A stretch of DNA of 64,000 nt from Candidatus Poribacteria bacterium (GCA_965208635.1 OZ242349.1:588272-652271); one strand, 5' to 3'; counted from the stretch's first letter, positions 13,657-24,850 are shown. Made by a program: numbers and translations. The notes: generated by a model from the letters alone, not told the origin.

Positions 13657-14784
13657 CTATTGAGGCGACCATGTGCGAAGCCCTTGAAGATCAAAACGGA
13701 AAGGAATCACTCGCGCACCAACCCCTTCCAATGCGTTTCTTGTGGATTTAACACGATCTGGATTACAGTGAAACAGTAGACATCCACCACCACCCGCACC
13801 ACACGCTTTTCCACCGCTACACCCATTTGCTTTCGCAATGTTGAACAACTCATCAATACGTCCGGTGTTTATTGAAGGATGTAACTGTTTTTGGAAACGC
13901 CAGTTCTCATCAAGCAGTTGACCGAAGTCGCAGAGATTGCGAGTCTGAAACATCTGTTTCATCTCATTGGCAATCCGACGAAGTGCTTTCAGGGCATCAT
14001 GCGTCCCTCGATTTCCTGCTTGATATGCGTCAACGACATTCCGAAGAATATCGCCTGAAAAATGCGATTCCCCAGTGTAAACAAGTAGCAAAGAGCTGTG
14101 AAGTTCTTCAAGGCTTTCCTGAGTCAGTTGAAGGGAGGTCGCCTCTACCGATTCGCCTTGACATCGCAAGAAATTTATCCCACCGAGTAGGCTGGCGTAG
14201 TGATCCTGTTTCCCACACGGAATTCCTGTTTCCTGTTCAATGACGGCGGCACTGTCAACAATTTGGTGTCGCAGCAATCTCTTTTCCGTGAAGATCGAGA
14301 GCAAACTCGCAAGAGCGATTCCCAGGGCCCCGGATGCCCCCAGACCACTTCCCTTTGGAACATCACTCCACGTCACAAGATGACAGCCTCTATCAGGACG
14401 CAAACGAGATAGAACCGCTTGCGGTAGATTCAATCCGTGCAGCGATGCCGAAACCCCTACCGGATGAAAGAACTCTTTGAGATCCACGGCGTAGAGACTG
14501 ACACACGAGTCAGGCACGGGAGTGAGACAAACATAAACGTGTAAATCAATCGCAGCGTTGACCACTCCCCCTTCATTCTCCCGCGCGAACGGAATCAGGT
14601 CTGTCCATCCGCCAGCAAGGTCGATGCGCGTTGGTGCGCGCGCATAAAGCGGGACACGTTGGGATAGAGCGGTCATTGCGCTCTTGTGTTCAGCAGTTGG
14701 AGGTTTCCATTGATTTCCCTGAGCATCTTGTATGTTATGAAGCAAAGTTGAACGCATCTCGTCTGAGGCTCCTGTAGATAACAT
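13657..14784 (-). CDS. GHMP-family sugar kinase (galacto-/fuco-/heptose-kinase-like)
   Basis: N-terminal motif RAPTRIDLAGGWTD, a GHMP ATP-binding motif PKGSGLGASGALGIALA, and a C-terminal GGKACGAGGGGCLLF. The track ORF begins at TTG 14820 and overlaps the ABM gene. ATG 14784 or ATG 14757 (AGGAG upstream) are more likely starts. Confidence 0.75.
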   Translation of the reverse strand: MLSTGASDEMRSTLLHNIQDAQGNQWKPPTAEHKSAMTALSQRVPLYARAPTRIDLAGGWTDLIPFARENEGGVVNAAIDLHVYVCLTPVPDSCVSLYAVDLKEFFHPVGVSASLHGLNLPQAVLSRLRPDRGCHLVTWSDVPKGSGLGASGALGIALASLLSIFTEKRLLRHQIVDSAAVIEQETGIPCGKQDHYASLLGGINFLRCQGESVEATSLQLTQESLEELHSSLLLVYTGESHFSGDILRNVVDAYQAGNRGTHDALKALRRIANEMKQMFQTRNLCDFGQLLDENWRFQKQLHPSINTGRIDELFNIAKANGCSGGKACGAGGGGCLLFHCNPDRVKSTRNALEGVGARVIPFRFDLQGLRTWSPQ

Positions 14785-14798
14785 AATACATCCGATGC

Positions 14799-15107
14799 TT
14801 AGACGTCTAAAACCGTGCAATTCCAGAGAAATTCAATCGAGGCGTATTCTCCAACTTTTTGCATCAGTGCCGTGTGTGTCTCACGCCATAGTTTCGCCGT
14901 GCTTTGCAGATGGACCTCTCTATTTTCCCAGAGTTCTGAAATACAATAACCGGCTCTATCTTGGTAGGTATCCAACAGTTCCACCTCCAAGCATCCGGGG
15001 GCGTTTCGTAGAACAGGCAGCCACTGTGTCTGGATAAATTTCTTCAAATCCTTCTTTTTCTTTTTCTCCCGCAGTGTGAGAGTATAAAAGATTCTTGCTT
15101 TCGCCAC
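14799..15107 (-). CDS. ABM (antibiotic-biosynthesis-monooxygenase-like) domain protein
   Basis: 102 aa. The ferredoxin-like pattern FIQTQWLPVLRNAPGCLEVELL..ISELWENREVHLQS resembles ActVA-Orf6/ABM family proteins. Confidence 0.5.
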   Translation of the reverse strand: MAKARIFYTLTLREKKKKKDLKKFIQTQWLPVLRNAPGCLEVELLDTYQDRAGYCISELWENREVHLQSTAKLWRETHTALMQKVGEYASIEFLWNCTVLDV

Positions 15108-15198
15108 GCTATAACTCCTTTGTTATTTTTGATGTTTCCGGTATTCACCGGAGTGGGTAATCTTCTACTGGGGTTTGTTGATAAGAAAGGCAGGCTTA

Positions 15199-16332
15199 CT
15201 AAAAAAACGTAAAGAACGGTCCTCGGCATAAAAGTGTTAAAATAACACCCAAACAGATCACAGGCGCGAACCGCAAAGAGTGCTGAATCCGGATTGTGTT
15301 ATCAAACACCTCAAACTCGCCATCTGCTGCCAATTGTTTCAATTCCGCTACCTTCTCTTTTGAGACACCGCCCGGTAATGTCCCAAGAATAATATTCGAG
15401 TTTAACACATTCGGGAGCGCAAAACCTTCCTTGCTATAAGTTATTTCTCCGTCGTCCCCTTCAGTTTTAACAATCTGTTCAGCAGGCACCATTCCCTCTT
15501 TCAAATCAGAGATGTCTACCTCGCGATCTAATACCATACTGTCGAGATTCTCAATGAAATGCTTCCCAAAGAAGAATACAGCAAGATATAGAAGGTATAT
15601 CTTCAAGAGCGGGGTGTAAGCTTCCGACCAGGCACTCAGTGTCCAAGGAGTTGTGATTATCATCAACTCAATTAGCACTACACAGACAACATAGTTACGA
15701 ATCCTCTCGAGACCGAATTTCTTTACATAGTAACTGAGGGTGAGATACAGAGAAAATATAATCAAGAGCTGATGCCACAGTCCGAGTTCAATCCCTAACC
15801 AACGCAGCGAGAGCATAACAAACTGTCGCAACCCGAGTAGAAAAATGAGGCTGAATACCCTCTCGAAAATCTGTTTACGGAAGTCTTCTTGTCGGAAGAT
15901 TGACATAAACGCCTGCGATTTCTGTTGGACATCTGTTTTCAGGCAGAGGTACGTAACAAGGATCATGCAATACGGCACGAAAATGTTGATAATGAGGGTT
16001 GTAGGTGTGTATTGCGCGTATGCAGCCGCCTCCGAAAACAGTCCCGATGGCATCAGCAGCGACGCTCCCCAAACAAGTTTGGCATCTCCTGCGGCGAAAA
16101 TACCAAACCAATAGAGTGCCAGAACAATTAAAAAGCCGCCAACAACCGTAAAGATACTGTTTAAGAGGGCACTACTCCCTGACAAAACATCAATAACTTG
16201 ACTGAGAATGCCAGCGTAGATGAGCCCGTAGCTGCAGAAATTCTTGATTTTTCTTTCTCGCAGATCTGTATAGGCAGCATAGCAGCAGAAAAGCAGAAGA
16301 AGACTAATGAACAAATTCTGGTAACTGAGCAT
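15199..16332 (-). CDS. polytopic membrane protein with N-terminal A24 (TadV/CpaA-type prepilin peptidase) domain and C-terminal soluble domain
   Basis: AAYTDLRERKIKNF (first catalytic Asp motif of Flp-type prepilin peptidases) and FAAGDAKLVWGASLL (second Asp, the GDxKL motif). Further TM helices and a C-terminal domain of about 110 aa follow. Confidence 0.65.
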   Translation of the reverse strand: MLSYQNLFISLLLLFCCYAAYTDLRERKIKNFCSYGLIYAGILSQVIDVLSGSSALLNSIFTVVGGFLIVLALYWFGIFAAGDAKLVWGASLLMPSGLFSEAAAYAQYTPTTLIINIFVPYCMILVTYLCLKTDVQQKSQAFMSIFRQEDFRKQIFERVFSLIFLLGLRQFVMLSLRWLGIELGLWHQLLIIFSLYLTLSYYVKKFGLERIRNYVVCVVLIELMIITTPWTLSAWSEAYTPLLKIYLLYLAVFFFGKHFIENLDSMVLDREVDISDLKEGMVPAEQIVKTEGDDGEITYSKEGFALPNVLNSNIILGTLPGGVSKEKVAELKQLAADGEFEVFDNTIRIQHSLRFAPVICLGVILTLLCRGPFFTFF

Positions 16333-24034: not shown

Positions 24035-24248
24035 TATTGATGCCTCCTTCTAAATACAAACCGAATATCAAGGATGTACGGAAAAAGCGAAAAGCAGTGC
24101 CTTTCTCAGCTTTTCCCGCACAAACTCTACCCTAAAGATTTCTCCTTAGAGTCTCTTTATCTTGTCTGTGGAAAAACTTGCGAAAACGAACCTCTGCCCG
24201 AAATGTGCATTTAAGACACAATCAGCTAAGTTCGTTTATCACATCTGC

Positions 24249-24557
24249 CTACCCAAGACAGCCGTCCCTTATGGGTTCACAAAAATAGCGGTCCCTACCG
24301 TCCCCATGCTTCCCGGAGCAACAAATCTCATCGTCGTCGTCACAATGCGTGTGATTGCCGTCAACACCACATTGATGCTGACCCTCGACGCCATGATGAG
24401 CCTCTGTGATATCAGGTGCGAGTAACATTGAAGCGAAGATGGCTCCTGTCGCGACAGTGCCGGCGACTAAGGCATTCTTATGCGCCACATGTCCCTCTTC
24501 TTTGACGAAGAAGTCACTGAGACGCTGTTTCGTGAGTTGGACTACGTGAGTCTGCAT
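24249..24557 (-). CDS. small Cys/His/Asp-rich signal-anchored peptide (candidate modified-peptide substrate or metal-binding peptide)
   Basis: Strong SD AAGGAG 8 nt before the ATG. The 102 aa begin with a charged N-terminal region of 27 aa, then a hydrophobic stretch of 22 aa ALVAGTVATGAIFASMLLAP. The tail AHHGVEGQHQCGVDGNHTHCDDDDEICCSGKHGDGRDRYFCEPIRDGCLG contains 6 Cys. It is the first gene after the sigma-54 promoter. Confidence 0.6.
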   Translation of the reverse strand: MQTHVVQLTKQRLSDFFVKEEGHVAHKNALVAGTVATGAIFASMLLAPDITEAHHGVEGQHQCGVDGNHTHCDDDDEICCSGKHGDGRDRYFCEPIRDGCLG

Positions 24558-24834
24558 TCGATTTATCTCCTTTTCTGTAAGGTGCTAACCTAAAAGCCTC
24601 ACAAAATACATCCATCCTATGCTACAATTGGGTTAGCACTGTCATAGTCGGGTTATGGCAGGGTTCTCCGCGCCGATCGGTGTCACTATCACCGGCGGCG
24701 CACCCCTGAAAAAATATCGGGACTGCCATTACAAAAATGATTTCGTCTGAAAAAACGAAAATCGTTAATAACGGTGAGTTCGGTGTAAAAATTAATGTAT
24801 TCACACCAAAACTCACCTTAGACTATAGTAATGA

Positions 24835-24850
24835 GCAAGTTCCGTGCCAA
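24835..24850 (-). promoter_or_regulatory. sigma-54 (RpoN) promoter, -24/-12 elements
   Basis: The plus strand reads gcaagttccgtgccaa. Its reverse complement is TTGGCACGGAACTTGC, which matches TGGCAC-N5-TTGC exactly. The predicted TSS is near 24823 (minus strand), about 265 nt upstream of the peptide gene. A sigma-54 activator gene lies 660 bp away. Confidence 0.7.

Follow-up and report, generated by a model that had tools for sequence, protein, structure and literature searches.

Which product could be made by an operon that joins a small Cys-rich peptide to two glycosyltransferases, a multihaem redox protein, a prepilin-type peptidase, two Kelch propellers, an ABM-like protein and a sugar kinase? 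Such an operon, of nine co-directional genes (g1 to g9 in transcript order, with a regulatory gene, g0, just upstream), lies on the minus strand of a 64,000-nucleotide stretch of DNA from Candidatus Poribacteria bacterium (GCA_965208635.1, OZ242349.1:588272-652271), which is referred to as the window. Poribacteria are an uncultured phylum that is dominant in many sponge microbiomes and whose symbiosis factors are largely unknown. An original prediction, made from the window sequence, had suggested a system like those for peptides that ribosomes make and that are modified after translation (RiPPs), one that yields a glycosylated, disulfide-containing secreted peptide. Here, we have followed up this prediction; all of the evidence is computational.

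We consider it fairly probable that this locus represents one of several copies of a Poribacteria system by which small, anionic, disulfide-rich peptides are matured and exported through a RiPP-like pathway. A more specific reading is put forward tentatively, namely that this is an undescribed RiPP class in which RiPP recognition elements (RREs) of the SCIFF type guide a heterodimer of family 4 glycosyltransferases (GT4), together with an A24 leader peptidase and a haem-linked thiol oxidase, to produce more than 1,000 glycosylated peptides. These would be knottin-like, anionic peptides of sponge symbionts, many of them with a cognate secreted propeller.

Precursor peptides with a conserved leader and variable cores

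The first gene encodes, as had been proposed, a 102-residue signal-anchored peptide whose Cys/His/Asp-rich tail can be seen in the translation. It consists of a leader (residues 1-22) ending in E-x-G, a hydrophobic signal or anchor (residues 23-53) ending in TEA, which is AxA-like, and a His/Asp-rich core (residues 54-102, nucleotides 24252-24398) with six Cys in the pattern C-C-CC-C-C. From the related loci described below, 104 distinct precursors were recovered that share one common plan, in which a basic N-terminal segment running to Glu-x-Gly is followed by a hydrophobic stretch of approximately 20 residues, an AxA-like site and a core with a median length of 39 residues. E20 and G22 (g1 numbering) are invariant in the leader alignment. 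A leader profile collects 1,177 protein clusters (90% identity) at E<=1e-3, all of which are 54-98 residues long, free of Pfam domains and, where annotated, hypothetical. Thus, g1 belongs to a large family in which the leader is conserved and the Cys-rich core varies, rather than being an unrelated membrane protein.

Statistics on leaders and cores were drawn from 212 full-length sequences. Cys makes up 14% of the cores and is present in even number in 88% of them, mostly four or six; 92% are net negative (mean charge -4.25), every core contains Ser or Thr, and a G-[TS]-C motif occurs in 68%. An AxA site separates anchor and core in 205 of the 212 precursors. Leaders are much better preserved than cores (pairwise identity of approximately 60% versus 29%, dN of 0.12 versus 0.56), and the Cys frameworks of the latter are many and unrelated. 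The loci thus show what characterizes RiPP clusters, namely precursors that combine a conserved leader with a variable core and are encoded beside an RRE-bearing enzyme. In addition, weak matches to the N-terminus of the NCBIfam family HxsA3 were obtained with six of the eight leaders tested (g1, 9e-4), a hint that these leaders belong to a wider family whose other members are served by radical S-adenosylmethionine (radical-SAM) enzymes.

RRE-bearing glycosyltransferase pair

The original prediction had assigned a PqqD-like RRE to the N-termini of g4 and g5. The RRE part of this assignment is borne out by NCBIfam and by a match to CteB, while the Pfam PqqD model stays under its threshold; the homologue P0148 matches PqqD with E=0.002. 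Residues 9-100 of g4 (2.6e-7) and 9-89 of g5 (1.2e-4, ScfB-like) align with the N-termini of SCIFF and ScfB-like radical-SAM maturases (TIGR03974 and NF040492). A profile built from 32 N-termini matches residues 6-83 of CteB (PDB 5WGG) with E=3.4e-15. CteB is the SCIFF maturase whose N-terminal RRE is reported to have been crystallized together with its leader peptide. An exhaustive search of representative sequences also found the same N-terminal domain (38% identity, E=8e-13) in a SCIFF/QhpD-like radical-SAM protein of 481 residues, which scores 302 bits on the QhpD model. The AlphaFold model of g4, based on an alignment of 47 sequences (predicted local distance difference test score of 89), has N-terminal strands at residues 11-16, 19-24 and 29-33 and helices at 35-43, 49-57 and 62-77. 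Homology to a structurally characterized leader-binding RRE therefore supports the assignment of both N-termini to the RRE type, and these domains would be expected to dock on the leader of the co-encoded precursor.

Both proteins also end in a conserved domain of approximately 90 residues (g4 residues 478-563, window 19175-19450; g5, 17518-17790), which is confidently modelled with three strands and three helices in RRE-like order. A second RRE at this end was considered and rejected: fold order is what points to it, the hhalign probability against the N-terminal RRE is 1.7%, and sequence searches found no relative of the domain in the PDB.

Two GT4 paralogues had been proposed. The catalytic domain is clear in g4, whose match to PF00534, of GT-B fold, is over threshold (1.5e-19), and weak in g5 (E=2e-3). 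The EX7E motif is intact throughout the g4 subfamily (GT-A), in which GEETFGLxxLEAMACG is conserved, whereas the whole g5 subfamily (GT-B) has lost SRxQ as well as the initial Glu of EX7E. This pairing of an intact with a degenerate protein is kept in approximately 50 loci, and g5 is probably a non-catalytic partner, judging by its motifs. The arrangement suggests an active enzyme with a substrate-binding partner, as in GtfA/GtfB.

With regard to the sugar donor, g9 is a GHMP kinase according to both Pfam and NCBIfam, as had been predicted; its HddA (6e-36) and fucokinase (7e-32) matches are both under the curated cutoffs. Sister loci possess an NDP-sugar pyrophosphorylase (nucleotidyl-transferase) and a phosphomannomutase in place of this kinase, and the presence of sugar-activation genes in both types of loci supports real glycosyl transfer. 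A methyltransferase is free-standing in some loci and fused to GT-B in others, such as in P0171 (863 residues; L076 10001-12592), where the GT-B type is joined to a class I methyltransferase. Another protein, P0143 (785 residues), unites a glycosyltransferase with Peptidase_A24, although a gene-calling artefact is possible. The two fusions constitute links of the Rosetta-stone style between components of the system.

Redox protein, A24 peptidase and secreted propellers

Signal sequences are present in the translations of g3 and the propellers and absent from those of the glycosyltransferases, the ABM protein and the kinase. The third gene had been described as a metallophosphatase-like, tetrahaem and DsbA-like fusion. 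Its four CxxCH motifs and DsbA-like fold are confirmed, with the correction that the DsbA-like site is CPYG with a single Cys. Its N-terminus matches NF041198, an UshA-like (seleno)protein family, with E=3.6e-64 (217.2 bits, under the cutoff of 275); this UshA-like domain is degenerate, and metallophosphatase metal ligands cannot be recognized in it by eye. The remainder matches cytochrome c554 (3.5e-13) and, at the C-terminus, GILT/DsbA-like models (3e-8 and 1e-7), and cytochrome c554 and a DsbA-like protein are likewise its sequence matches in the PDB. In 46 homologues, conservation reaches at least 95% for P78-C79-G80-C81, the four CxxCH motifs and C506, C583, C595 and C657, these Cys residues comprising that of the single-Cys CPYG site and three others.

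The predicted A24 domain of g7 scores 35.2 bits on PF01478 (cutoff 26.5, E=1.8e-8) and is followed by an Arc_PepC match (PF06819, 1.7e-6). Across 58 homologues, conservation is at least 95% for D23 and G82-D83-x-K-L (AGDAKL), so that both catalytic Asp residues of A24 peptidases are present; a phmmer search with g7 against the PDB gave no match.

Both proteins annotated as Kelch propellers, g2 and g6, are such proteins. A secreted propeller lies directly 3′ of the precursor gene in 64 of 108 cases. Propellers were also considered as a universal glycosyltransferase substrate and ruled out, several complete loci having none. These propeller-free loci still contain the glycosyltransferase pair, the A24 peptidase, the haem protein and the peptide, which is therefore the sole universal candidate substrate.

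One side observation concerns the C-termini of the propellers. Kelch and TolB/PD40 propellers of the window and of loci L014, L018, L062, L073 and L076 all end in KLxTTWGx[LIV]K followed by 1-8 residues, and this tail is common to organisms of 47% and 66% guanine-cytosine (GC) content. It occurs in 122 of the 1,117 locus open reading frames (ORFs) of at least 150 residues, including a few non-propeller proteins (e.g., L062 5836-6771); within the window it is found only in g2 (22904-22960) and g6 (16344-16400). The tail could act as a signal in sorting, docking or recognition.

Distribution and conservation across loci

A genome scan revealed 72 loci, of which a single genome can contain as many as five (five on OX639992.1 and four on OZ246958.1), and all named g4 homologues come from metagenome-assembled genomes (MAGs) of Poribacteria. 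Searching the 72 loci with the window proteins by tblastn defined a core set that consists of the RRE-GT4 protein with intact EX7E, the degenerate RRE-GT4 protein, the A24 peptidase, the protein combining an UshA-like/PCGC region with tetrahaem and thioredoxin-fold domains, and one to five precursor genes. Conservation of the gene neighbourhood, which the original prediction had made a test of itself, is evident in the 51 loci with full flanks, at least 44 of which contain A24, at least 37 the haem/thioredoxin protein and at least 43 precursors.

In orthologous loci (77-93% identity), the gene order of the window is kept, with one to three upstream cassettes of peptide and Kelch genes. Paralogous loci (35-40% identity) comprise GT-A, GT-B, one or more peptides with TolB-like propellers, a methyltransferase, A24 and the haem protein, and often continue with the nucleotidyl-transferase and phosphomannomutase. 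The ABM gene is present in 12 of the 72 loci, mainly orthologous ones, and the GHMP kinase gene in seven; Kelch, ABM and GHMP genes are accessory and lie outside the core. The system is also found in a MAG of 66% GC and in L076/L077, one locus fusing GT-B to the methyltransferase. As a further observation, L073 (CAYYPK010000001.1; 66% GC, labelled "uncultured bacterium") has two glycosyltransferase pairs, a precursor with an SESG leader and five PD40/Tricorn-like propellers with the same KLxTTWGx[LIV]K tail, a gene set suggesting that the system may extend beyond low-GC sponge Poribacteria.

Proposed pathway and alternative explanations

Domain identities, RRE homology, conservation of catalytic residues, synteny, and precursor architecture and diversity are directly supported by the comparisons above; from them we infer each biochemical step, as well as which sugar is transferred and to which residue, where cleavage occurs and what biological role is served. 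Transcription would be driven by sigma-54 and the adjacent activator, and an RNA structure 3′ of the precursor gene would favour precursor over enzyme transcript. In the cytoplasm, the RRE-GT4 pair may dock on the leader through its SCIFF-maturase-type RREs and move a sugar onto the peptide, with Ser/Thr as the most likely acceptor and Cys as a possible one; the NDP-sugar donor would be supplied with the help of the GHMP kinase here and of the pyrophosphorylase and phosphomannomutase in sister loci. The peptide would then be inserted into the membrane N-in/C-out by Sec insertion, the A24 peptidase, acting from the cytoplasmic side, would cut off the leader at the invariant Gly, and the core would be freed at AxA by signal peptidase I or another enzyme. 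In the periplasm, g3 is expected to oxidize Cys pairs and pass the electrons to its haems, and the secreted Kelch or TolB-like propellers might bind, carry or neutralize the peptides.

Several points weigh against this pathway. The modification of the peptide is itself a prediction. On excised g4 and g5 N-termini, PF05402 (PqqD) reaches 13.3 and 14.1 bits against a cutoff of 23.4 (E=0.1 and 0.06). The g5-type proteins may be inactive, the window operon contains no nucleotidyltransferase gene, and none of the possible acceptor positions is shared by all cores. Positive selection on the cores is unsupported (median dN/dS 0.37, with saturated dS and uncertain alignments). The thioredoxin-fold site of g3 has one Cys and no CxxC. 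Cleavage at Gly22 is proposed by analogy, since the precursors neither match Flp_Fap nor have Glu5/Tyr6; strict sigma-54 promoters are present in only some sister loci; and few precedents are known for a glycosylated peptide that crosses the membrane by a Sec-type route.

Three other explanations were weighed against the RiPP-like pathway, all of which are less likely. First, the precursors might be Flp-type pseudopilins for surface display, cut at Gly22 by a TadV-like A24 peptidase and decorated by the glycosyltransferases, with the Cys-rich head anchored or built into a fibre. An invariant Gly before the hydrophobic segment and a dedicated A24 peptidase with both Asp residues conserved are what such a system should have, and the leader motif FxxxEEG resembles the FLKDESG of Flp. 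However, five diverse precursors gave no Flp_Fap match at E<=10, positions +5/+6 are not Glu-Tyr, and a conserved AxA site (205 of 212 precursors) separates the anchor from the core. Moreover, Pfam scans detected no Tad ATPase, platform or secretin among the operon products and ten other large window ORFs, the remaining window ORFs, the sister flanks and the rest of the genome being outside the scan. Known pilin glycosylation is periplasmic and carried out by oligosaccharyltransferases instead of a cytoplasmic RRE-GT4 pair. We therefore regard pilin-like display as unlikely.

Second, the peptide might serve as the small subunit, cross-linked or locked by disulfides, of an enzyme or lectin complex in the periplasm that is built on a propeller (plus cytochrome). 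The analogy is quinohaemoprotein amine dehydrogenase, which is composed of the gamma peptide QhpC, the propeller QhpB and the dihaem protein QhpA. It gains weight from the 64 of 108 precursor genes that directly precede a secreted propeller, from the multihaem protein in the core set and from the 302-bit QhpD score of the nearest radical-SAM protein that shares this RRE. Fast core divergence and many unrelated Cys frameworks are, however, unlike a cofactor-bearing subunit, several loci lack any propeller, and a radical-SAM or flavoprotein maturase is absent from the operon products, which makes a small-subunit role an improbable alternative, on a par with pilin-like display.

Third, it is very doubtful that the GT4 proteins make an envelope glycolipid or polysaccharide, with another role for the winged helix and an incidental link to the peptide, although their best GT4 matches are the small-molecule and lipid glycosyltransferases MshA, BshA, PimA and GlcNAc-PG synthase, because the homology of the N-terminal domain is specifically to an RRE that binds a leader, the pair stays linked to precursors, A24 and the haem protein across 35-93% identity and several gene orders, and P0143 unites glycosyltransferase and A24 domains.

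Operon organization and regulation

All nine ORFs were found where the original prediction had placed them, from 24557 down to 13657 (Table 1). The uniform spacing of 12-45 nt that it gave is not seen: the spacers measure 214, 41, 13, 13, 67, 11 and 91 nt, after which g8 and g9 overlap by 22 nt or, if g9 starts at the next ATG, are separated by 14 nt. The nine genes would form one transcript. The assignment of g8 as ABM-like is borderline (23.4 bits against a cutoff of 23.1). In agreement with the prediction, Pfam and NCBIfam scans of the nine products found no radical-SAM, YcaO, LanM or ABC transporter domain.

Table 1. Operon genes and regulatory elements in the window
Feature	Position	Strand	Evidence
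g0, sigma-54 enhancer-binding activator, PspF-like architecture	25513..26553	-	Sigma54_activat 3e-68 (residues 29-194), AAA_lid_14, HTH_8 6e-11
Candidate upstream activator sites, two tandem palindromes GCGTC-N5-GACGC	25037..25069	.	188-220 bp upstream of the -24 element
Sigma-54 promoter TGGCAC-N5-TTGCT (-24/-12 elements)	24834..24849	-	Read directly
g1, precursor peptide, 102 aa	24249..24557	-	Translation, leader alignment
Structured intergenic RNA right after the precursor gene	24035..24248	-	Minimum free energy versus shuffles
g2, secreted Kelch beta-propeller, C-terminal tail KLPTRWGQLK	22904..24034	-	Kelch_1 4e-58
g3, signal-anchored periplasmic redox fusion	20886..22862	-	Pfam, NCBIfam, PDB sequence matches
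g4, RRE-GT4 with intact EX7E	19175..20872	-	PF00534 1.5e-19, NCBIfam, AlphaFold model
g5, RRE and degenerate GT-B-type paralogue, three-domain layout as in g4	17518..19161	-	PF00534 18 bits; N-terminus 1.2e-4
g6, second secreted Kelch propeller, tail KLSTHWGALK	16344..17450	-	Pfam 7e-71
g7, polytopic A24 aspartyl peptidase (prepilin-type, GxGD) with Arc_PepC-like C-terminal domain	15199..16332	-	PF01478, PF06819
g8, small ABM-like protein	14799..15107	-	PF03992 23.4 bits
g9, GHMP sugar kinase, HddA/fucokinase-like	13657..14820	-	NCBIfam

The perfect sigma-54 promoter that had been claimed, TGGCACGGAACTTGCT, is indeed read on the minus strand at 24849-24834, 277 nt before the g1 ATG, and agrees with the -24 GG/-12 GC consensus; in 1.47 Mb of related sequence, the strict motif occurs approximately once per 120 kb per strand. 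The activator gene upstream is receiver-less as described, with a Pfam AAA+ domain from residue 29, a Fis-type HTH (HTH_8) and neither a receiver nor a sensor domain. Two palindromes upstream of the promoter are the sole matches of their pattern in the window, against an expectation of 0.07, and are probably the binding sites of this adjacent activator. In the orthologous locus L001, the same promoter 16-mer is equally placed (290 versus 292 nt before the precursor ATG) and the same palindrome pair (L001 4763-4795) lies 187-219 bp upstream of it. The region has the classical layout of an enhancer-dependent promoter, complete with an adjacent enhancer-binding protein. Activators related to g0 adjoin six of the 72 sister loci. 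Sigma-54 control as a system-wide feature was ruled out, strict intergenic sites being present in few loci only, and a threefold strand bias of sites with one mismatch comes mostly from conserved coding sequence.

Two observations were made in passing on these regions. In the sister loci L058 (15121-15730) and L048 (15301), an activator gene has a consensus sigma-54 promoter after it, which in L058 precedes a signal-bearing protein of 127 residues that is rich in CC/CxxC motifs and does not have the usual leader. In addition, the 277-nt 5′ untranslated region (UTR) of the window operon contains a GTG-initiated ORF of 64 codons (24622-24816), whose translation resembles that of an equivalently located ORF of 50 codons in L001 (5012), a likeness that may represent either coding sequence or conserved UTR DNA.

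The 214-nt spacer after g1 has a minimum free energy of -71.8 kcal/mol, compared to -50.6 in shuffled sequences (z=-5.3). The spacers after precursor genes in 73 sister regions have a median z of -3.75, with z<-2 in 84% of them, versus a median of -0.23 and a share of 10% in control segments. Through such structure, precursor transcript is probably increased relative to that of the enzymes. An Rfam scan of the window gave no match.

Outside the operon, a Pfam-negative ORF of 660 residues lies directly downstream (11139-13121) and appears by eye to consist of two similar halves, i.e., an internal duplication. Elsewhere in the window, four very large secreted proteins (40438-45027, 47555-51859, 52004-53776 and 57118-60717) carry cadherin, LRR, dockerin, lamin-tail or LVIVD domains, and each ends in a FlgD_ig/CHU_C-like C-terminal domain. 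They are eukaryote-like repeat proteins typical of sponge symbionts.

Significance and comparison with known systems

The enzyme set appears to be undescribed, and occurs in several copies per genome with more than 1,000 different peptides. As the original prediction had supposed, no family with this architecture was found in the searchable literature. Literature supplements yielded nothing for PF00534, and A24 or prepilin peptidases are not mentioned in a review of RiPP leader peptidases. RRE-glycosyltransferase fusions have been mentioned generically (PMC7470986), including a remark that names GT2 PF00535 (PMC12710340); antiSMASH has made "RRE-containing" calls in a Poribacteria MAG (PMC12795557), and unexplained, highly expressed "Other" clusters have been reported in Poribacteria (bioRxiv 10.1101/2023.06.09.544420). 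Given a literature without a description of it, the system is a candidate for a new RRE-dependent RiPP class.

If the proposed chemistry is true, RRE-GT4 glycosyltransferases and A24 peptidases would join the enzymes of ribosomal peptide maturation, a haem-coupled route to disulfides would exist outside DsbA/DsbB, and Poribacteria would possess a family of small disulfide-rich peptides that is very large and has been diversified by nature. The conserved leader offers a handle for mining (1,177 clusters) and for producing scaffolded peptides in heterologous hosts. The pairing of peptides with propellers in cassettes suggests recognition of some kind, which may act in toxin/immunity, as a carrier, or in host or phage interaction.

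Among known systems, the SCIFF/ranthipeptide maturase CteB shares the homologous 85-residue N-terminal domain and its fold order, and its substrates are likewise small Cys-rich precursors. In contrast to CteB-type maturases, the catalytic domain here is GT4, Radical_SAM/SPASM domains being absent from the operon; the precursors have a signal or anchor and would be exported, and no thioether chemistry is implied. Glycocins such as sublancin (SunA, SunS, BdbA/B) also combine a Cys peptide with a glycosyltransferase and a dedicated thiol-disulfide oxidoreductase per cluster. However, they rely on a SunS-type GT2 enzyme (GT-A fold) without an RRE, a double-glycine leader and a C39 ABC transporter, whereas the present system has GT4 with an RRE, an A24 peptidase and a Sec-like leader, and none of its nine products contains a GT2, C39 or ABC domain. 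The GtfA-GtfB O-GlcNAc transferase of serine-rich-repeat adhesins differs in that peptides of 70-100 residues and RRE recognition are involved here, and the operon has no SecA2/SecY2. With Flp prepilins and TadV, the system shares a dedicated A24 peptidase without a methyltransferase domain and an acidic-x-Gly sequence just before the hydrophobic helix, but not Flp_Fap homology, Glu5/Tyr6 or, in the ORFs scanned, pilus genes, and here the helix leads on to an AxA site and a Cys-rich domain.

Compared to NF041198 proteins, g3 matches in its N-terminal and haem regions, with PCGC aligned to PCGU, but has Cys in place of selenocysteine and an extra thioredoxin-fold domain. Some RiPP precursors have Sec signal peptides (PMC12710340). 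Those of the bufferin type, in which DUF2282 precursors go with DUF2063-type RREs, differ from the present system in their chemistry, in the families of their enzymes, in the kind of leader and in taxon. Prochlorosin-type libraries likewise have a single enzyme set that serves many divergent cores behind a conserved leader, with other chemistry, enzymes, leader and taxon.

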